A stretch of DNA of 64,000 nucleotides from Eledone cirrhosa (Eukaryota): the NCBI GenBank assembly GCA_964016885.1, contig OZ024742.1, forward strand, positions 124,620,001 through 124,684,000, given 5' to 3'. The notes under the pieces were generated by a model. It searched no databases. It saw only the letters and a list, made by a program, of their open reading frames with translations, and was not told the DNA's origin. The first letter of the stretch is position 1. Each line of letters opens with the position of its first letter. Shown here piece after piece: positions 5,170-62,007 of this stretch. A program made the translations under genes and the position numbers.

Positions 5170-5295
5170 GTAGGAGGTGAGTTTTATTGTAGTACGATAA
5201 AGCAATGCAGATATCGGATAAGAAGCACTCTACAGTTTGTAGGACTGGAGTATACATAATATAAGATCAAAAGATGGTTAAAGGAGTTCCATGTA

Positions 5296-5364
5296 TTTTA
5301 TTATGCGCATTTCAAAAACAAACATCATCATGCAATAATATTTGTGTTTTCATCAGATAAAACA
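5296..5364 (-). ncRNA. Type-I hammerhead ribozyme (mirror copy at 6993-7062, +)
   Basis: TTTTAT-CTGATGA-long stem II-GAAATGCGCATA-ATAAAA. Stem III is the palindrome AUGCGCAU. Confidence 0.8.
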
Positions 5365-6395
5365 GGAGAACATGATATGAAGGCTAAAAAACACTTGTGG
5401 ATAGTGCAGTTTTAAATCAACATATGAAAAGTGGTTTTAGATTGATGTGTGATATTGGGAAAAATATTTTATTTAGGGAGGGGGGGGTGGAAAGGATGAA
5501 AAAGGGGAGGAGATGAGAGGGAGAGATGGGTGATAGAGAGAAAGAGATAGTTTTTATAACTGAGAGAAGATATATTGTTTTACATAGAGAGGTTGAAAAC
5601 CGTTGGAAGATAATGTATAATTAAAAGAATTTGAAAATTAACGAAGGGAAGATATGTACGAGGAAAAAATATTTTATTTAGGGAGGCGGGGGGTGGAAAG
5701 GATGAAAAAAGGGGGAGGAGATGAGAGTGAAGGTGGAGAGGGAGAGATGGGTGATAGAGAGAAAGAGATAGTTTTTATAACTGAGAAAAGATATATTGTT
5801 TACATAGAGAGGTTGAGAACCGTTGGAAGATAATGTATAAATTAAAAGAATTTGAAAATTAACGAAGGGAATTTATGTATGAAGATAGAGAGAAAAAATA
5901 ATAATTGTGGATGAATATTCTAACGTCAAAAAAGTGTATGTTGATAAGTATTGTGGCAATTTCAAAATTATCGAAGAGAAAAAAAAAATTATTAAGGTTT
6001 GTGTGTAGAAGGATTTGAGAAAAATAATGTGAAGTTAAAGTTTGTATATTGAAGGAATTGATAATATGTGCGAATAAAGAGTTAATATGTATTAAGAATG
6101 AGTTCGTTGATGGGGAGAAAAAAATAATAAATTAAGGATGAAATTGAGATTAAAAAGTTTTATGGTAGAGAGAAAAAATAATGATAATTGCGGATGAATA
6201 TTCTAACGTCAAAAAAACAAATGTATATGTTATGAAGGATTTTACAAGGTGAAGATAGAAAGAGGGTAATGAGTAAACAAGTATTATAGAGTGTATAATG
6301 CCCTTTGAAGTAAGGTAGGAAGATGGGTATATTTTAAAGAGGTGTATGTATATGTGCCTTTGAGAAAAGATTCTAAATTGATAAAGAATTGAATA

Positions 6396-6719
6396 TTAAC
6401 TGTATACTTTGTGAAAAGTCCTATGGAATTTATGCAGGCAGATAGAAAACAAATCTGTACGTCTATTTATTATAGAATCTAGATTAGAGATAATGGTAAA
6501 TTTTTCATTTAGGCAGAGATTACAGATTTTAGATAGAGAGCTGTTCAAGTATCAGGATGCAGAAGAAACCTTCTTCCAAAAGATGGTATATTTAATGTTT
6601 TTGTCTTTCAAGGACCATATGAGTTCTGAGAGAGCCGTGTTGGTTCTTTTAAGTTTGTATTTGAAAGATGAATGGTGATTATAGAGACGAGCTTTAAAAG
6701 AGGTGGAAGTGGAGCCAAA
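6396..6719 (-). pseudogene. PLE GIY-YIG endonuclease remnant
   Basis: Manual translation: FGSTSTSFKARLYNHHSSFK...TALSELIWSLKDKNIKYTIFWK...(stop)...CNLCLNEKFTII..IINRRTDLFSICLH. Confidence 0.85.
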
Positions 6720-7093
6720 ATTAAAATTCTTTTAATTTATACATTATCTTCCAACGGTTTTCAACTTCTCTATGTAAAACAGTATATCTTCTCTCAGTTA
6801 TAAAAACTATCTCTTTCTCTCTATCACCCATCTCTCCCTCTCATCTCCTCCCCTTTTTCATCCTTTCCACCCCCCCCTCTCTAAATAAAATATTTTTCCC
6901 AATATCACACATCAATCTAAAACCACTTTTCATATGTTGATTTAAAACTGCACTATCCACAAGTGTTTTTTAGCCTTCATATCATGTTCTCCTGTTTTAT
7001 CTGATGAAAACACAAATATTATTGCATGATGATGTTTGTTTTTGAAATACGCATAATAAAATACATGGAACTCCTTTAACCATCTTTTGATCT

Positions 7094-7143
<50 letters not shown>

Positions 7144-8079: not shown

Positions 8080-8478
8080 ATAGAGAGGAAAACGCAGGTG
8101 AGTGTGTTTTCATTACCGGATTTTAACCACCAGCGTGAAGAGGATATAAGCTAAGAGAGGTATAAGAGACACACAATCATTAAAAGGATAATTTAAAAAG
8201 AGAAACCTACCTCATACGTAAATCGCACTTGTACAAACTCCCTAAGAGATTGTTTCACCGTATTAATGGTTTAAAATTCAGCTCTTGGATCATCAGCAAG
8301 TGCTCAAGCTTATATTGTCCCCGCTACTAAAGATAACTATAGTAACTGACCTGCAGCACAGTGACCGGTGGTATGAATAGAACAAGCAGCTAGAGATGGC
8401 AGCCTATACTATTCAATTTATCGTGCTCAATTGCAGATAGAAGACGCGAGTAGCTAATATCAAGTAAAATAATGGAAT
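8080..8478 (-). mobile_element. PLE pLTR remnant with decayed HHR (related copy at ~61625-61858)
   Basis: Minus strand reads CTGATGA-TCC...CGGT-GAAACAATCTC at ~8245-8297. It shares GTACAAA.TCC..A.GAGAT.TGTTTC with 61783-61807 and is TA-flanked. Confidence 0.5.
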
Positions 8479-8736
8479 ATATATATATATGTATATAAAT
8501 TAATAAAGTAATGAATAAACAAAGAAACAGTTCCTTATATTTAAAAAATTCATCATTTTACGATCGTTTCTAGGATATATATGTGTTAGTGTTGGTATGC
8601 ATATTCTATAGATCTATGTAAAATATTTATACAAAACTATCAGAGGGAATATACATACCTACACATATATACATACCTACACATATATACATACCTACAC
8701 ATATATACACCTAAATCAATAAATCTAACTAAAAAC

Positions 8737-9525
8737 GTGTGTGGTGAAGTCATTAACAATAATTATCTTAATAAACATCAGGATACATCCTATAAAAACA
8801 ATAAACAACATCGAAACCGTAATAGACGAGTTACTTGGTATAATGCTTCATTTAATTTACAAATTAAGGATAATATACCTAAAAAATTCTTTAATATCCT
8901 AGAGAAGAACTTCCCGCCAAACCACAAATACCATCAAATTTTAAATAGATCAACGGTTAAATTCTCCTACTCAACAACCAAAAACATAAAACAAAATATA
9001 AGTGCCTACAATACATATAAATGTAAAAGAAACATGAGTATACCACCAGTACATCAAACTAACCATAATATCTCCTCGGATACAGGATTCACGAAAAGTT
9101 GTAACTGTAGAAACAAGGCAAACTGCCCATTAAAAGGAAATTGCCTTGTTAATAACATAGTATATAAATGTAAAGTTAACACTAAGGACTCAATTTATTC
9201 ATATATAGGAGCTACCTCTAACAAATTTACGGTAAGATGTAATACTCATAAACATAGTTTTAAAAATGCCGCACTAGCTAATATAACATCTCTAGCTGAA
9301 ATAATTAATAATTATAGAAAGAGGAATATAGATTATGACCTGACCTGGAGTGTGCTCAAAAGGGCCACCCCTTATTAAAATAATAGATATGAATGTAGAT
9401 TATGTTCCCAAGAACTTTTTTAAATAATGAAATCTAAGGATATCCTATTAAATAAGCGACAGGAATTAATAATATCGTGTAATCATAACCTGAGAAAAAC
9501 CTTTAAATATTATAAACCTAATTAA
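8737..9525 (+). pseudogene. PLE RT-thumb/linker plus GIY-YIG endonuclease (Cys-rich linker type), with in-frame stops
   Basis: RRVTWYN..FPPNHKYHQILNRSTVKFSYS, CNCRNKANCPLKGNCL, NIVYKC...YIGATSNKFTVRCNTH. Beyond the stop at 9376-9378 it continues CRLCSQE..LLNKRQELIISCNH. Confidence 0.9.
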
Positions 9526-11357: not shown

Positions 11358-11620
11358 CAGGCACACATATATACATGTACGTATCAGTTTAGCGAATATT
11401 TATTATAACATTCGCTTTGTTCGTTTGTAAACAAAAGGAAAGCCTGATTTATGCCGTACGGTGTTAAGGCAACCACGTCACCTGTTTGTTCAACACTGAC
11501 ACAGGAACGATGTACTAGTTTCAAGCTTGTTAGCTATCGTCAGCACCGTATACCCTTCTGCCAGATGGTTGAACGTTCGAAAGTATATACTTTCCTTACG
11601 AAAATTAACGGCTGAGCAGC
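11236..11620 (-). mobile_element. Partial copy of the ~427-nt retrozyme-like unit
   Basis: Colinear with 7144-7462. Confidence 0.75.
11509..11547 (-). ncRNA. Minimal type-I hammerhead ribozyme (39 nt)
   Basis: GGTG-CTGACGA-TAGCT AACA AGCTT-GAAACTAGTA-CATC. Stem I is GGUG/CAUC, stem III is the palindrome ACUAGU and the cleavage site is GUA. Confidence 0.8.
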
Positions 11621-11631
11621 AATTAGGCTGC

Positions 11632-11816
11632 TACAGTTAATATGGGGTCTTATTTTACAGGTTATACATTTCTTATCTATACATGAGGGTCTTTGAAAAG
11701 GGTATGTCTTGCTAATAAGTGTTTTTACGGAGGTACCTGGTCTTTCTACTATCTTAATATTGAGTTTATGTTTATCTAGGGCCCTTCTAAATTTGTAAGC
11801 TAATTCACCTCTAGGT
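11632..11816 (-). pseudogene. Inverted upstream piece of a PLE ORF (thumb/Cys linker)
   Basis: PRGELAYKFRRAL..NIKIVERPGTSVKTLISKTYPFQRPSCIDKKCITCKIRPHINC. It continues in frame with the + strand piece once flipped. Confidence 0.75.
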
Positions 11817-12158
11817 ATTAACTGTAAAACTAGAAATGTAGTGTATAGCATAAGATGTACTGAAGGACAATGTAGAGACAAAAATATAGTGTACATAGGT
11901 GAGACAGATCGTAGTGTAGGGGAACGGATAAATGAACACTGGCGAGACCTTCAAGATAGTAAAGAATCATCTGTGCTCTACCAACATAATAAAATAGAAC
12001 ACAAGGGTAAATTAGAGAACATAGAAATAAAAATAGAATCTACACACAGAAAAGACGCAATGTTTAGACAAATCACAGAGGCAATAAACATAAAAGAATT
12101 ACAACCAAAATTAAATAGAAAATATGAGTGGAACAGCAAAATCACAACTTACAATTAA
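11817..12158 (+). pseudogene. PLE GIY-YIG endonuclease C-terminal piece
   Basis: INCKTRNVVYSIRC..C...VYIGETDRSVGERINEH...SSVLYQH...RQITEAINIKELQPKLNRKYEW. Confidence 0.9.
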
Positions 12159-18369: not shown

Positions 18370-20148
18370 AAAGTTATATTTAAATTGTTGGGTTAACAAC
18401 GAGTAAATATTTATAACTGATATAAAAGCACTCAACAAGTATTTGGAGTATATTTATGATATTAAATAAATGGAAACTATATTTATAAAACCATATTTAT
18501 TTCGTTATATATATTTCAGGGATATCATATTAACAATATGTTATGCCATCTTCAGACAAAATACAATATAAACAGTCTTATAAATAAATAGATACGACAT
18601 ACCTTTCAAGGGGGATTCCTTTTAATTCATCCTCTGAGACATGTGACCTCTGTGCGGAGGAGATATTCTTTATACTAAAATCTAAAAATTCCCTTAATCT
18701 ACGGACAAATTTATTCAGTTGCTGCAGACATAGATTGAACTCAACGTTTAAATATAAATTTAAATTTAAAATGTAGTTATGTTTGTTTTGATTTGTAATT
18801 ATTTATGAAACTAGCCGATAAATCTTTCGATTTCTTCTTTTTATTAAAACATTCTTTTTATTAAAACATTCTTCATGAATAATTAAACTACCCTAAAAGC
18901 TGATGCTCCAAATATATCGAATTCAATTTTAAACTAGATAAACTTCTATATTATATATAAGAACATATGTAGACCAATTGGGTATCCTAAACTTTTGGAA
19001 TGATTTCTGCTAGACAGGATTTGGTAAACAATTTTTGTTTTATCTGTTTCGACTCTGATGCTTATGATGATCTTGGCAATATATTGCCAATTAACTTTGA
19101 AAGGCTGATCTCTGTGTTTTATTTGTATTATTTTTTTATATTTTTTAATATTTTGTAATATTTTTTATTTTTAATATTAAATGTTTTAGTTTTCTGTTTA
19201 TTTATTTATTTTCTTGTCTCTGATATTTTTATTTTTATTTTTATTTTTATTAATATATTGAAATCTGTTCTCTATTTCTGCTTGATCGACAATCATGTAG
19301 AATAAAGACAAGAATAGTATTGTTAAAATTAATATAGACTCTATTTATATGTGTATATATACACACATATATGTATACTTGAATTTTTATAGCACAATGA
19401 GAATGTTTTCGTGTGAATTGGGAGTTTGTTTATAATTATGATATAAACATATGAATTTTTTAAAACTAGACATAAGATCATTACTTCTCACACATTATAG
19501 ATACATGTCTCATTCTTGAATACTGGTACTTACATTATAATGCCTGTTTTATACGAACTAATATTTTCTACGGATAAAACATAGCGGTTTTAAATTCTGC
19601 ATCTTTTATGTCTGGTTATGTTTCATTTTCTCTTTTTCATTTTCTCTTTTTTCCCTCTATATAACGGCTATTTTCTCTCCTAACTACATACATCTCTCTT
19701 TACATTAATACTAGAGCTAAATAAATAAATAAATAAATAAATGTATCAACCGATACTCAACTTCCTAATTTCTCTATCTATCTCTATCTATCTCTTTCTT
19801 TTTTCCTCTCTCTATATATATTTCTCTCTGTTTCTTTACATGAAGTTCTTCTCTTTATCTATCTTTCTATATCCCTCTATTTAGTCACATACATTTCTTC
19901 TTTTTCTTCGTTTCTCTTTCCTTCTCTCTTTATCTCTTTCTTTTTACAACTGTCCACAATATTTTTTACTGCCAAATCAACCTCACAAATGCAAGGTGAT
20001 TGATAGGTATGTCGTATCTATTTATTTATAAGACTGTTTATATTGTATTTTGTCTGAAGATGGCATAACATATTGTTAATATGATATCCCTGAAATATAT
20101 ATAACGAAATAAATATGGTTTTATAAATATAGTTTCCATTTATTTAAT

Positions 20149-20154
<6 letters not shown>
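18368..20154 (+). mobile_element. 5'-truncated Penelope-like element with inverted pLTRs
   Basis: 18455-18604 is the reverse complement of 20005-20154. 18606-18776 translates to PFNSSSETCDLCAEEIFFILKSKNSLNLRTNLFSCCRHR (GIY-YIG tail). (TA)n flanks. Confidence 0.85.
20046..20111 (+). ncRNA. Type-I hammerhead ribozyme (mirror copy at ~18498-18563, -)
   Basis: TATTTTGT-CTGAAGA-stem II-GAAATATATATA-ACGAAATA. Stem I is 8 bp and stem III is the palindrome AUAUAUAU. Confidence 0.75.
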
Positions 20155-20199
<45 letters not shown>

Positions 20200-48256: not shown

Positions 48257-50350
48257 TATCATAGATTGAGTTAGAACTCAAAATAGTATTTTACAATTAA
48301 ATAGCTCAAGGAAGGGAATCTTTCCGAGCCGTGTAATACAATTGAATATATGAGAGGGATGAACACCGATAGAAGTATACATGTGTTCGAATTGTAAATG
48401 ACCAATTTAGTTAGGTTGAAAACATACTAGTTTAAAAAATATGGTTTGCCTGTCTCGATTTAAATTAATAAATCAATAAAAATAACAAACCTATATTGGG
48501 CAACTGCCTTCGATACCGGGACATATCTAAAATCTGTTTCGCAAGAATTATTAAGAGAAAGCCACCATTCCTATGCTCTTCTGCGGGAATATATATATAT
48601 AACTAATAAATTACAAAAACCGCTACAATAAGCTATAAATATATAAAGGTCAAACTCTGGTAATCAAAATAAAACAAAGTAATGATTTACCCAAGATATC
48701 TCAGGGCTATGATCTCCATTTGACATGCGAATCTAGGTAAAACTTTACTTTGTATTGTTTTATTTGTCATATTTTGCCCTTTCTATATTTCTACCGCATT
48801 GTACCTGACATATTTACTGGCGCAATTATGCGAAATATTGAAACATGAATATTAGAAGCATGAAGAAGCTGCAAGTTTGTAGCAGATATAAGAGTTGTAA
48901 TAAAGAGTTCAAGTTCAACTGTAATTATGAATGGAGAATTAATGATGCACTTTCACGCTCTCACTTGATCTGCCAAAGTGAGCAGCGGAAACTCCTTCAA
49001 ATTTCATATCACGGAATTATATACATGACATATAATAAAATGATAAACAAAAGAATGATATGATCATCAGTTTAGCCTGGACGTGTTAAATTAAAGCTTA
49101 CATATCTGTAAAGAACTTAATCACATTAAAAAAGAACTGTAATGAATCTTTTTATAAGTGGTTATAAGTGATATTATGTTAACTGGGTGCAATAAGTGAG
49201 AACTAGAGATATATGGATGGCTATTTAGAAACAACAGAAAGGTTATTATACACAAACTTACACGCAGATAAATATATATCTATCTATCTCTCTATTTGTC
49301 AGTATAAACATATAATTACAGGCATTTCCTGGTTTGTATTGTAATTTTCAATTTCCTATTATCGATACACTCTCTTCGATGATAAAATGATGGGGAATAT
49401 CGTGGGAGCTCGTCAAAAACACGTCTCTCTACGACATGGTCCTGTTTGAAGCGTTTTTCACGACCAGCTTCACTAGGAGGCGGGTTGACGAAAGAGTTGT
49501 GTGTTCCAGGAAGTGGCTGGCCGCCTCATTTCCACTCTTAAGTTCCATTTCGACCTGGACAGGTCTTATTACCTTGCTCAGGTGACCTTCGACTGACTTG
49601 CTGGCCTTATATATTGGTTTATTTTTCGCTTAATTAGATTTTACCTGAGAATAATAATTTAAACCATAATTCATCCTAATTCCTTTTATATAGATATGCA
49701 TATTAATAATCATTTCCTATAAAAAATATTAAATTACTCGTTATATAAGATTCTTCTCAATTCTCAGCTTTAGATAACTCGTCAAATGTTAGCAACAATC
49801 TATAAAAAAAATCTGATGATTGTAATAGTAATAAGGTCATTAGGTGATTGTTTACTAAAAGTAATATTTGTGAATTGAGAAGTAACAGAACATATGCTTG
49901 ACAATTTTTAATTGATATTTTCCATTATTCCCAAAATAGTGATTTTGAGGACAATGTGAATTTAATTAATCATTTGAGAACGATCATATAGAATAACACA
50001 CTTCTGTCATAATGCCAGCTTTCATTATGAAAGTTAAATTTGGAGAAGCTATTCACAACTCAGAGATAGAATACGAAGTGTTGACTTAAATACAATTCGT
50101 GTGCTTTTCTAAACTAATGTTATATGATACTGCATCATTGTTGTATAACCAACTTTTCTTTCAAACCGGTGGAATTGTCGTTCGACCCCTGTGAGCAGCA
50201 TTTTTGGCAAGTGTCGTCTAGAATCAAACAAATATTTGGGCAAAACCGCAACGGATACTCATTTTACTTTCTCGAGTGATTGCAATTAACATGCTGAACA
50301 TGCATTATCGTCCACATGTTATCAACGCGTTCATTTTCATCACCAACAAT

Positions 50351-50442
50351 CTTCTTCTTCTTCTTCTTCTTCTTCTTCTTCTTCTTCTTCTTCTTCTTCT
50401 TCTTCTTCTTCTTCTTCTTCTTCTTCTTCGTCTTCTTCTTCT
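50351..50442. repeat. (CTT)n microsatellite
   Basis: Read directly. Confidence 0.95.
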
Positions 50443-50803
50443 TTGCATCGTGACTGATAAATTATTCTATACATGTGTATTTCTACTTTAATTTCTCATG
50501 TTTGTGATGTAGGACTAGCGCCCGAAACTTTGAGGGTCTTCTCCTACTATATAAAGCGTAAAGCTAAGTACAAATATCTTCATTGTCGTTTGCTTTGATA
50601 TTTATGTTTGCTTATTGCATATATAAACATACACACACACACACATACACACACACACGCACATATATATATATGCATTTTCCCCAATCCATGAGAGCCG
50701 TTATTTGATGCAAATAACACGTGATTTCGCCCTACTCTGGGCAGCGTGTATATTAGCTTTCTCTCTATCCATGAGCTTAGATGTGTCGTGAACAGTATCC
50801 ACA

Positions 50804-50880
50804 TTTGCTGACTGAGGATCCTGTGGACTGTTATACTGAACATATCGGTGGTGAAACGAAGCGAGATTCGTATCAGCAAA
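50804..50880 (+). ncRNA. Complete monomeric type-I hammerhead ribozyme; predicted cleavage after A50872
   Basis: TTTGCTGA-CTGAGGA-TCC..GGT-GAAACGAA GCGAGA TTCGTA-TCAGCAAA. Stem I is a perfect 8 bp, stem III is 5 bp and the site is GUA. Confidence 0.85.
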
Positions 50881-51063
50881 CTTATAGTGTTGGTAGTTTA
50901 AAACTTTAATCAAGAGATTTGCTTCTGATTTAGTTTTTTGTCTATTTAATTGCTAAACCTGTAGACATTGTTCTCTATACAGTAACGGTAAAGTTCACTT
51001 GTAATAATTATTTTCACACATCTCACTGTGTAACACTTCTCTTTGTGTAATATATTTGCATTA

Positions 51064-51119
<56 letters not shown>

Positions 51120-51122
<3 letters not shown>

Positions 51123-52515
51123 CCATCTTCACCCTACAGACCCACACTCCTCCCGGCCTGAACTCCCCACACTTATTCCTTTAGCCTTCGACCGCCCTCC
51201 TCCCCCCACACATATCCCCCACTAACACCACTAACACACCACCCACTCTACACGCAACTAACATCACTAACACCCCCAACCCTACGCATACGAACACACG
51301 CACCCTCTTACACCACCCACTCTACACACCCTACCACCACTGACCCACACTCACACCCGCATTCAACCCTTTCTCCATTTCCAGTATACTAACACCCACT
51401 AACACCCCCTTCACCACACACACACTCATCCAAACACGCACACACACCAGCACACTACACTCCCTCCATCGGCCCCCACACCGTTCTCTCCCCGCTCCAC
51501 CCATACCCTTTCTCAAACACACACACATCCCACTAACACCTCTACTAATACACACACACACCCTCCTCACTCCAACTTTCACACCTACCCATCCTCTCAC
51601 CTGTCCACCGCACCTCCACACACACTGACACACCGACTTTCTTCACTTACCATTCTACCCTACTGCTGCTATGCTCTCTGACCACCTCCCCGCACAGACA
51701 GACACACAACCCTCCTCCTGCCTTGACCCTCTGACCACTTCCTGTTGCGCGCGCACTCCACATCTCCCCTCTTCCGACCAATATCTTCACGGATTACACA
51801 TATGTGAACCTTGATCCCGAGAATCTACCGCATCCCAAGGATATTACTCAGCATTCCACCACATCGTTTTACGAAATTTCCTTTACGAATAACCCCCGGA
51901 GATACACCCACAAAAATGTTTTTCCTCACACGCCACCTACATCCACAACACGCATAAACACCACACACACACGTGCGTACCACCACATATTTACATATTC
52001 AGCCTACGGAATCCTCGCCCCCACCCCTCTATCCACACACGCACACACACTCCGACCTACACCCCACCCCACACACACCTCTTCCTGAACATGCACCCCG
52101 TTCTTCCCACAACCCTTGCTTTCACATACACACACATACACACACACACCACCTTCAGCCCTCCCCGCTCGGACACCCCGTCTTCCACTCCCCACTCCGC
52201 CCGCCACCACCCCTACACGCCCACAGCCTTCCACCACCTGTTTTACCCCATGTGTATTTTTAATTTTATTTTTAATTTCATTTGCACCTTATTTCTAATT
52301 TCATTTGCACCGTTTCCTCTCACCCCCTTGTTTCTATATGTCTCTCCACCACTCCCCTACACACCCTTGGAACTCTCTTCCCACACACTTTTCACCTGAA
52401 GAAGGGCTTATGCCCAAAACGTCGTTCCCCACCACCACCCCACTCTCAGGAGCGTGAAACTAATAAACCTTTGTTCGTACTGCCTCTCTGTTTTGTTCAC
52501 GTTCAATTTTTTACT
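51120..52515 (+). mobile_element. C/A-rich PLE-type 3' region ending in a decayed HHR (52396-52423)
   Basis: CTGAAGA-AGGGC TTAT GCCC-AAAACGTC (G12A), then AATAAA and (TA)n. Confidence 0.5.
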
Positions 52516-57250: not shown

Positions 57251-59057
57251 TTTTGTTGAAACAGTTTTACCGAATGTTCTATTGTAGCACCTAGACAAGA
57301 TATTTGAAATAATAATACATGAAATACTTTCATATATTTCTAAATAATTCATTTCGTTTATATGAGAAATATATGTATGATTTCATTGTGGGAAAAACAA
57401 AAGTTAAAGAACAAGTTATTAATTTTTTATGAAAAATCATATATGTGTATTTCAATCCCATTCCTCTGATAGGATATTTTGTTCCCGGAAGATTTTTGTA
57501 CAGTTTTATATGAATTTTTGTTATTCAACGATATTAAGAATATAGTAACATTGACAGTAGTACATATTTCTTAAACATTTTTGTATTGAGAAATTCATCA
57601 CTGTTGATCTCATCCCCGTGGCAAACGTTCTCTTGAGGCTTATATGAATCTACTGCAATGATACTATCAAACTTTTGTAAGATTGTGATTAAAAGTTAGT
57701 GGCAATTTTTCATTCTATTAATAAACTTTTGACATTTCTGATAGAATGCAATATAATTACAAATAAAACAAGACAAATGAAGTTACTAATGTCATGTAAC
57801 TGTAGATAGATTGAAACATTTATCCGTAAAAATATTTATATCAAGAGACGATGATTGAGGCTTTTAAGGGTAAATCTGAGATTAACACACGCCTCTGCGG
57901 CAATTCTAAAAATATTACCTCTATAATTATTTCCTAATAGGATTTGAAACATTGAAAAGAATCTATCGAACATTATTTTGATACACTTGTGGAATAAGAG
58001 ATACATATCTTTATCTATTTTCGAATTTAAGATATGAATTTCGTATGGAATTTTATTTCTTCATGATGCAAGAGTGTTGTATAGTATTCTTAGGGGAATA
58101 CATTCTAGAAAGAGTAGTTTTTCTGTCTCTATTTACTAGAGACACTTCATATCAAAGTCAATAATTTCTGTAATAAACTCTCTTCGTCATACGAAACAAT
58201 AACTGTCTATTCGGCTCAGAAGTGGTTCTTTGGCTTTCTAATATTTAATAGATATATCCAAAATCCGATTGGCTAGGATTACCACATGACGTTTTGACAT
58301 ATGAGCAAGAATTATGCAATCAATAATGATTCTATTTATGTTTTCAGGAAGAAGGTATAGTTGACAGAATCAAGTAATCTCTCAGTATTATATTTCTTTA
58401 TTTTGAGATTAAAATTATACAAAGAACAACAAAAAAATTTGAAAAGAGAGATATTATAGGAAATTAAGATCTATATGGGTTTTAAGTTTGTAAATATTTG
58501 GTAGTACTATGTTGTTTTTTCAATGAAATATTTAGCTCATACTAGCATTAGAGAAAATATAGTGTGGAAGACGTAGACGATAGGGTACATGACTACGATG
58601 TTTTTTTCATCAATGAAATATTTAAATCAATATCATTAAAGAGAATATAGAATACATAAACACTAGGGTACAGGAATATCAGCTAAGAGCTCAGCATTTC
58701 ATAACGACCGGTTCAATGGACGTGACTATACTAAATATGATTAAATAATCCAGTCTATCAAACTAAATATAAAGACGAACAACTCACGATTTAAGTTGTA
58801 CAAATGCCGTTTTATTAGAACATATTTCTTTAACTTGCAATGTTAGCTTACTCACACAGCCATAGAAAATTTTAAATGTACATGAAATGAGTAACTTGTA
58901 CATGCAAAAGAACACATGAAACGGTAAAGAAAAATTATGATTTGTGAACATTACCACCAGCAATGCCAATTAAATGCTTATTTTCGTTTTGAATTTTGAG
59001 TTGCATATATCTACACTCTCCACCTAGCAATATATATACATATATATATATATATAT

Positions 59058-60130
59058 GAAAATCTCAAATACGTAAATGTTGGATCTAACCACCCCATCT
59101 CTATAATTAAATCTATCCCTAAAAATATTTCCCTTAGAATCTCGGGTCTATCTTCTAACATACAAGTATTTAAGGAACACGCCGAGTACTACGATAACGC
59201 CCTTAGTAAAGCAGGCTACCTCAACAAAATAGAGTATATAGATGGGAACAATCAAAACACCCAAAATAAATCCCACATAGGTAGATATAATAACACAACA
59301 CCAAACCACACTTACTACCGTAGTATGCACACCAGTAAACCAACAAACAAAACTAATAGAAAGCGATGCAAAGAGTACTTATGGTATAACCCCGAATACA
59401 ATAATTCCATTAGTACAAATTTACCAGTACTCTTCTTTAAAATAATTAAGAGACATTTTCCTACATCACACAAATACCACAAAATCCTAAACCCAACCAC
59501 TATAAGACTGTCATACTCTACAGCGTTAAACCTTGAACAACACATAAAAAAGATCAATACTAGAAGGTTAAACGAAAACACTGAGAACTTAAGTACAAAA
59601 AACACAAAAAAACGGTAGACAATACACTACAGAACATAAATAAACCACACCTAAGTTCGTCCGCAATACTACTCCAGAGAAAACCCAACGTACACAACTG
59701 TAACTGCACCTATCCTGACAACTGCCCCCTCGGCAATAACTGCCTGGAAAAAAAGATTATTTATAAGTGTACCATTAAATCCGGATGCAACGAGTGGTAT
59801 TACGTGGGATCAACGGCAACATCGTTCGAATCTCGATTATATAGGCATTCTTACTCAATAAAACACCAGAGCCAAAGAAATGTAACAACTTTAGCAGAAA
59901 AAGCTTGGACGCTCAGGGATAGCGATCAAAAGTTTACTCTAAAATGGGAGAAATTAGCTAAAACCAAAGCTTTTCCAGGAGCCAAAATTTCTGCAAAGTA
60001 TGTAATCTTGAGATTTATTACATAATCACACACAAGAAGAAATTACTGAATAACAGAATTGAACGAACATTATTCTGCCGTCACAGAACAAAAACCCTTT
60101 TTTCCCACTACAAGCCGAATATTACATAAA
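59058..60130 (+). pseudogene. PLE RT thumb + GIY-YIG remnant (frameshifted)
   Basis: KYVNVGSNHPISIIKSIP..RISGLSS..YYDNALSKAGY, LWYNPEY..HFPTSHKYHKILN..LSYS, CNCTYPDNCPLGNNCL, YVGSTATSFESRLYRH and LLNNRIE..FCRH. Confidence 0.9.
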
Positions 60131-61523: not shown

Positions 61524-61858
61524 TACATATAGATATATAGATATATATCACGATAAATTGACGGAGTCATAGACTCTCGTTATTCCCTGCCAATACTGTG
61601 CTCAAAGGAAAAGGAATCCTGAGCTCTTTAAAATACAATATGTTGAAATGGTAACAAACTAGAGATAGGTAGTGCGCCATCAATATGGAATCTAAAATCT
61701 ATGGAAGGCACGTTAGACGCACAATAATAAAAAATATAAATTAAAATGTATATACGCACCTCTATAACTATATAACACACGCGTACAAATCCAAAGAGAT
61801 CTGTTTCGCCAGGAACTTGTTGACTGAAATGGAATAGCCTATGGTTCATCAGCGCGTG

Positions 61859-62007
61859 CAGTAATTACTCATTGCATTAATGGTACTTTATTTTATCGAC
61901 CCCGTAAGGATGAAAGGCAAATAAAACAACATTTGGAAAAAAGAAAAACACTCAATTCATTGAATTATTGAAATATCTAAAAGTATTCATCAATCGGAAT
62001 TTTAAAT
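61859..62007. repeat. 149-bp direct duplication of 62942-63090 (SINE piece plus unique flank)
   Basis: One mismatch seen by eye. Confidence 0.9.

Follow-up and report, generated by a model that had tools for sequence, protein, structure and literature searches.

Within a 64,000-nucleotide stretch of the Eledone cirrhosa genome (contig OZ024742.1; the whole stretch is called the window hereafter), a hammerhead ribozyme motif at 50791-50880 includes an upstream strand complementary to its own loop II, which raises the question of whether this pairing activates the ribozyme or keeps it closed. A first, sequence-only reading described a fully paired, monomer-competent hammerhead, the only one of its kind in the window, and proposed for the upstream strand either a long pseudoknot or a conformational switch. 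The motif scan finds a complete hammerhead core, with its blocks in the classical type I order and three stems of 8, 2 (plus a U·U mismatch) and 5 bp around it:

50804..50811, + strand: stem I 5' strand, 8 bp with 50873-50880 (sequence reading, motif scan)
50812..50818, + strand: hammerhead core CUGANGA, here CUGAGGA (motif scan; columns invariant in a 30-motif alignment)
50819..50821, + strand: stem II 5' strand, the U of the U·U mismatch and then CC (sequence reading)
50850..50856, + strand: stem II 3' strand (GG, U) and core GAAA, the latter at 50853-50856
50856..50872, + strand: stem III (5 bp, 6-nt loop 50861-50866) and GUA triplet at 50870-50872
50873..50880, + strand: stem I 3' strand (sequence reading, motif scan)

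From the hammerhead consensus, the cut is predicted between 50872 and 50873. Sequence and motif scan bear out the 8-bp stem I, the intact core, the 5-bp stem III with its 6-nt loop and the GUA triplet. The motif is not fully paired, as stem II is made of a U·U mismatch and 2 bp (50819-50821 with 50850-50852), and it is not alone, as two more hammerheads of the class stand on the minus strand, each with a 7-8-bp stem I, a real stem III and a short stem II with a long loop:

61776..61860, − strand: second hammerhead of the class, family B type, core 61852, upstream strand replaced by other sequence
8225..8330, − strand: third hammerhead of the class, family C type, core 8296, duplex decayed (-7.8 kcal/mol)

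Its competence as a monomer is doubtful, the full upstream duplex leaving a linker of 3-4 nt to cross ~65 Å. The Rfam scan of the 64-kb window gave no hammerhead match at the gathering score and, at E<=5 in 50000-52000, 10 matches with no hammerhead among them; the models miss the class because loop II is long and stem II has 2 bp. A permuted hammerhead of type SGC was considered and ruled out, as the core blocks stand in classical order. In the 30 aligned motifs, the CUGANGA, GAAA and NUH core letters are invariant; the sequences of stems I and III vary between clusters, yet their pairing is retained.

The strand preceding stem I pairs with most of loop II, and only three nucleotides then lead back to stem II:

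50780..50803, + strand: upstream strand, with segments P3 (50780-50790), P2 (50791-50795) and P1 (50798-50803)
50822..50846, + strand: pairing part of loop II, with P1' (50822-50827), P2' (50828-50832) and P3' (50834-50846); nested-ensemble pair probabilities mostly 0.9-1.0
50847..50849, + strand: 3-nt return linker from the duplex end to stem II

Together, 50780-50803 and 50822-50846 form 22 bp with a duplex energy of -21.0 kcal/mol, and this is also the predicted fold. The energy is equalled by 2 of 100 shuffles, none of the 389 other windows within ~450 nt is as good, and the whole-fragment folding z-score of the motif is unremarkable (-1.2). The 11-bp helix with a 2-nt bulge drawn at first (50791-50803 with 50822-50832) is present and constitutes half of the full 22 bp, which is more stable by 8.6 kcal/mol; across 35 equal-length family A copies, its pairs 1-4 are kept in all 35, the fifth in 25 and the sixth in 18. 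The small hairpin also drawn then (50835-50849) overlaps the outer segment of the duplex; family A keeps each of its pairs in 28-35 of the 35 copies, but it has no counterpart in other clusters. As for the choice between a long pseudoknot and a conformational switch, the latter is the better reading of a pairing that is real and covaries.

The hammerhead class amounts to thousands of motifs in the 3.0-Gb genome, within small mobile repeats. A search for a 2-bp stem II closing a 20-40-nt loop gave 2,291 matches against 86 for a reversed control, and a looser pattern 11,135 against 3,165. The fetched loci yielded 133 motifs (114 distinct) falling into 23 clusters. Fifteen long-loop clusters were retained and eight dropped, namely three single truncated or deleted copies and five clusters in which loop II has its own hairpin; three of these five lack the upstream duplex (-1 to -4 kcal/mol) and two have a partial one (about -12). 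A loop II hairpin as a general feature was rejected, since its z-score is better than -1.5 in a single long-loop cluster.

When the strands were swapped among the 15 cluster medoids, cognate partners paired at -18.1 kcal/mol against -10.2 (sd 3.8) for non-cognate ones, a difference reached in none of 100,000 permutations; as the clusters are related, the medoids are not 15 independent events and the statistics overstate independence. Each medoid's own partner was the best one in nine of the 15, the misses going mostly to sister clusters. The adjacent strand outdoes every other window within ~450 nt in 10 of the 15 medoids, and two of the misses involve very strong distant windows resembling nearby inverted copies. 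When 30 motifs were aligned with MAFFT, a 13-pair structure drawn by eye was 71% paired against 59.7% after shuffling (0 of 500), and 33-49% paired when slid along the alignment. Considered separately, P1 is 80% and P3 77% paired, with P2 at only 54%, and P1 displays two-sided changes at all four of its pairs. On the same alignment, the count of pairs with a two-sided change did not exceed that of shuffles and RNAalifold returned no consensus structure. Pairing is conserved among genomic copies, since the helices change sequence between clusters and remain paired. The upstream/loop II pairing covaries across clusters and is therefore under selection; the class is a real, selected structural variant of retrozyme hammerheads.

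The dimensions of the duplex bear on what a single copy can do. In the 15 medoids, it counts 14-22 bp over 19-29 nt, or ~60-100 Å, and the return linker has 0-10 nt, mostly 3-9. Even fully stretched, the linker is too short for the duplex in 11 of the 15, and therefore stem II cannot close within one copy without melting the outer segment. A kink in the duplex was rejected as a way out, no tandem G·A motif being visible by eye and one medoid being continuous (22 bp with a single bulge, so no kink). The drawing with 11 bp and the hairpin is borderline by distance (31-37 Å needed against a reach of ~36 Å), and in the window copy the hairpin returns 2.2 kcal/mol against the 8.6 lost with the outer duplex; modelled in this way, that fold is borderline, possible only in family A and energetically uphill. 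A toy polymer model, which uses assumed constants, ignores core, Mg2+ and triplex energies and thus ranks routes but proves nothing, puts the cost of closing stem II in cis at 4-8 kcal/mol of melting in 11 of the 15 medoids. In these 11, the modelled effective concentration in cis lies between 4e-10 and 3e-7 M, whereas a free partner would reach 5.5e-5 M at a distance of 450 nt and 4e-3 M at one of 20 nt; the other four medoids (clusters 4, 13, 19 and 20) are not disfavoured in cis in the model.

The motif lies in the ~390-bp non-coding, TA-flanked insert noticed at the outset, which is delimited as follows:

50629..50674, no strand: (CA)n/(TA)n tract, 5' junction
50675..51062, + strand: 5'-truncated copy (0.72 unit) of a 547-bp non-coding, circularly permuted unit, family A
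51063..51119, no strand: (TA)n target tract, 3' junction, where the copy ends at the commoner of the two family 3'-end sites

The unit length of 547 nt was measured between the two tandem motifs of locus L019, to whose unit the window copy is 92% identical; the unit is non-coding, with a longest ATG frame of 89 aa. Family A has at least 463 copies by an exact stem III/stem I pattern (control, 0), and a 201-bp query against the genome gave 641 candidates, of which 40 were scored, with 44 matches among those. In 47 family A loci, selected for the ribozyme, which biases the ranges, the main piece spans 0.33-2.28 units. It exceeds one unit in 20 loci, only two loci hold two same-strand motifs, 28 include an inverted piece, and 5' ends are scattered. 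Of the 47 3' ends, 44 lie at one of two AT-rich sites inside the unit, at +187-196 and +285-295 relative to the cut site, and nearly all run into (TA)n. Insertions of this kind are described for Penelope-like elements in the available text of PMC8557442, and reverse transcription was shown to start internally at two sites for one such element (PMC11167929, as far as its available text goes). Judged by its insertion pattern, the family A unit is a non-autonomous Penelope-like element, that is, a non-LTR retrozyme. Its genomic copies read through the cut site and end elsewhere, from which we infer that the template was uncut or re-ligated RNA. Only one of 13 family A matches has its 5' end at the cut site. 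Starts at the cut site were not significant in family B, with four new ones (27 of 28 non-subfamily rows inspected, among the first 100 of 273 matches) against one in the control, a window three bases upstream that gave one in an equal span and four genome-wide.

The reading preferred here, with about an even chance of being right, is that the duplex is a lock, the monomer being off and the core being completed between neighbouring tandem copies in a type II topology. The duplex would form during transcription and expose stem I and CUGANGA-N-CC in its hairpin loop, while the linker would be too short for the GG-N-GAAAC of the same copy to close stem II. A neighbouring unit could dock its own GG-N-GAAAC, stem III, GUH and stem I strand without melting anything, and the geometric conflict found in cis would vanish because the halves come from neighbouring units. 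Unit n would thus give GG-N-GAAAC, stem III, GUH and its stem I strand, and unit n+1 the other stem I strand, the core, CC and the tail. This assembly of unit n into unit n+1 would be a type II hammerhead in which loop I contains the remainder of the unit and is paired with the free 3' tail. Cutting would turn transcripts longer than one unit into monomers, and these would circularise and remain uncut. The circles would be copied back by a borrowed Penelope-type RT-endonuclease priming at the internal AT-rich sites on (TA)n targets, and the thousands of single genomic copies would thereby spare host transcripts.

Several observations count against this two-copy reading. The scarcity of family A loci with two same-strand motifs (2 of 47) does so directly. 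So does, within the limits of the model, the nested fold of a natural two-copy span, where stem I did not form: the duplex is kept and stem I has a probability of 0.01, pseudoknots being outside the model. By analogy, a stem II of 1-2 bp with U·U and a pseudoknot works in monomers elsewhere, according to the available part of PMC3088659, and eight of nine Xenopus retrozyme dimers were uncut in vitro according to the accessible portion of bioRxiv 10.64898/2026.07.22.740005.

Sequence marks on either side of the ribozyme add a further element:

50778..50780, + strand: TAG landmark where the upstream strand begins, resembling a 3' splice site or an initiator, at the AG position of the class
50881..50894, + strand: remnant of an RGUU-tetraloop hairpin and a G/GUNNGU (5' splice site-like) motif

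Of 94 motifs that were found without requiring AG, 70 have one that ends 30-31 nt upstream of the core. Downstream, G/GU lies 20-29 nt past the cut site in 14 of the 15 clusters, with the longer G/GUNNGU in 12, and a 3-5-bp hairpin with an RGUU loop stands between stem I and this motif in 10, its stem sequences differing; the window copy is without 6 nt after stem I, between 50888 and 50889. Both marks resemble splice-site consensus sequences, and they would presumably place the ribozyme in an exon of ~115 nt. The AG upstream of the core could instead be an initiator. Introns are known in the pLTR of Penelope elements (PMC2377424, available part), and one of them, in Drosophila Penelope, stops beside helix I (PMC4209133, available part). 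Contigs from three runs of one sample, which are not recorded as RNA and so carry no weight on this point, contain no joint at the predicted splice sites of tandem locus L019. A spliced family A junction had no match in the genome. The family B junction had two, both within an 18-bp minisatellite whose examined parts contain no hammerhead. This minisatellite extends over at least 24 kb (G000:C1:436638000-436662000; L178, L179, L299, L300), and its unit equals the last 9 nt of family B before G/GU followed by the first 9 nt after AG, maybe by chance. In folds of family A, the 5' arm of the RGUU hairpin has an alternative partner in a near-copy of the 3' arm that lies ~8 nt ahead of the AG of the following unit; no such alternative was seen by eye in other clusters. 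An E-box-like CANNTG, a possible promoter element, was noticed by eye at ~50718-50723 and 55-95 nt upstream of the core in several clusters.

A fuller version of the two-copy reading joins these marks to the lock: the ~20-bp duplex would forbid one-copy folding, the class would be split at the repeat junction, the active type II form would come from two units with the remainder of the unit as an intron in loop I, and tandem arrangement and splicing would together control cutting. This whole scheme is doubtful.

The alternative that survives best retains the lock and has it opened in cis by a protein (RT-endonuclease, helicase, or spliceosome at the adjacent AG) that would melt P3, after which P1, possibly with P2, would activate a monomeric type I hammerhead. 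The AG conserved at the end of P3, the position of P1 exactly where an activating pseudoknot would lie (0-4 nt from stem I), and the 13-16-nt linker that melting 5-8 kcal/mol would release in the polymer model all point this way, and the hammerhead of the lizard Poseidon element offers an analogy, since it cleaves only with its protein added (PMC11167929, in its available text). This route requires an extra factor, however, whereas the two-copy route requires none, and it is regarded as possible but rather unlikely.

An ordinary activating pseudoknot is improbable as an explanation. The monomer would then cleave alone through P1 and P2, assisted by the small hairpin in family A, and P3 would form only after cleavage or in the circle. 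About 40% of hammerheads have a pseudoknot between stems I and II, and stems II of 1-2 bp and U·U are tolerated (PMC3088659, in the part available); family A keeps its hairpin with one-sided changes, and its geometry is borderline possible. Yet P3 emerges ahead of GAAA during transcription and contributes 8.6 kcal/mol, where the hairpin, which is missing from other clusters, contributes 2.2, and the tested examples in the same part of PMC3088659 have 5-6 bp. Here the upstream strand does pair with loop II beside stems I and II, but the pairing is not short enough to coexist with a closed loop II, 11 of the 15 medoids being beyond the reach of the linker. It is highly improbable that the duplex serves another step (masking of a splice or start site, template structure for the RT) with the ribozyme cutting little in vivo, for although genomic copies pass through the cut site and end elsewhere, Poseidon insertion in vitro is independent of cleavage (PMC11167929, available text) and eight of nine Xenopus dimers stayed uncut in vitro (bioRxiv 10.64898/2026.07.22.740005, accessible portion), the core letters are invariant and the two strands of stems I and III vary in concert between clusters.

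At least four types of hammerhead are present in the window. Two inverted repeat pairs (5251-7106 and 18449-20160) have in each arm a hammerhead-like motif with a long AU-rich stem II, with cores at +7001/-5356 and +20054/-18555, and further short motifs lie at +970/-929 and +32976/-32545. At 11543-11950 (− strand), a Neptune-like ORF fragment is joined to another repeat with a minimal hammerhead (core 11543, 1-bp stem III). Fragments of the C-terminal part of Penelope-like ORFs, at 8590-9378 and 59028-60130 (both + strand), include a CxCx5C linker before a GIY-YIG-like domain and fit the description of the Hydra clade; Pfam reported nothing above cut-off for six ORF fragments of the window.

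The genome is rich in autonomous Penelope-type ORFs with long open frames, Hydra-like ones among them. The Hydra-like and Neptune-like ORFs found near motifs were considered as autonomous partners and rejected as separate insertions. No pLTR in common with the unit was seen in 11 ORF ends or in 60 loci from two autonomous families, and the sampled families have short ordinary hammerheads where these were detected (one regex match in 30 loci for one family, a short-stem motif for the other). One very young autonomous Penelope-type family (L349-L378) is 97-100% identical, with many 775-aa open frames and a compact hammerhead ~390 nt after the stop codon. Elsewhere, at G000:C1765:405009-405497, a Hydra-like match stands in an open frame of 1,292 aa against the usual 719 aa. 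A scan of 47 viral and 80 listed metagenome loci (at least 119 found) gave 13 weak candidates out of 127, none convincing by eye.

Metazoan non-LTR retrozymes are similar in having a non-coding unit with one hammerhead of type I order, monomers and partial tandems, and thousands of copies alongside Penelope-like elements in the same genome (PMC7229834 and bioRxiv 10.64898/2026.07.22.740005, in the parts available of each). In the same parts, the reported circles measure ~170-400 nt and the vertebrate consensus reaches up to 972 bp, whereas the unit described here has 547 nt. In place of the loop-loop contact nucleotides of metazoan retrozymes, it has an upstream/loop II duplex of 14-22 bp. Penelope-like elements also have minimal, weak-stem-III hammerheads that reportedly work as dimers (Lünse et al. 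2017). Dimer-type Penelope hammerheads are alike in belonging to a Penelope-type repeat and in being predicted off as monomers and on in tandem, but their stem II is long, their stem III weak and the swap takes place at stem III (available parts of PMC4209133 and PMC6765202). The weakness of stem III is thought to permit the cutting of multimers and to prevent it in monomeric circles (PMC4209133, available part). In the present class, stem III has 3-8 bp and stem II 2-5 bp, and the swap is predicted at stem II instead.

In the hammerhead of satellite CYDV-RPV, a pairing between stems I and II reportedly inhibits the monomer, cleavage taking place as a double hammerhead. That system is said to differ in coming from a plant virus satellite, in being of type III and in having a short pseudoknot and one sequence, with no genomic repeat superfamily. 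This inhibitory pseudoknot is a conceptual precedent for the lock. Pseudoknotted hammerheads of types I and II are alike in having a Watson-Crick link between the stem I side and the stem II side, and a 2-bp stem II and U10.1·U11.1 are known among them; read across two copies, the present motif has a type II topology with pairing between loop I and the 3' tail, which is the consensus arrangement there (PMC3088659, as far as available). The pseudoknots of that source have 5-6 bp and are activating, whereas the duplex here is about three times longer and, as modelled, would be incompatible with closing loop II in one copy. Hydra-clade Penelope-like elements are alike in their (TA)n targets and, for many, in a U·U or similar mismatch at the foot of stem II and a 3' sequence resembling AGUU, and differ in having loops II of 3-10 nt and loops III of 1-2 nt (PMC8557442, available text). 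No homology with the unit was found in the autonomous loci sampled. Within an incomplete coverage of the literature, which includes the available parts of PMC7229834, PMC6155905, PMC10085705, PMC6765202 and PMC3185516, no hammerhead with a 15-22-bp upstream/loop II duplex was found.

This class bears on two questions, namely the role of hammerheads in Penelope-like elements and the way in which thousands of scattered copies spare host RNA. The lock reading lends itself to a sharp and cheap test, since P3 is predicted to keep a lone copy silent and one particular two-copy fold is predicted to cut. If true, it would represent a second, independent route to self-cleavage that depends on copy number, with the swap at stem II and not at stem III, and nature's own design could be borrowed for ribozyme switches. 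Motifs classed as type I may then function as type II across the junctions of repeats.
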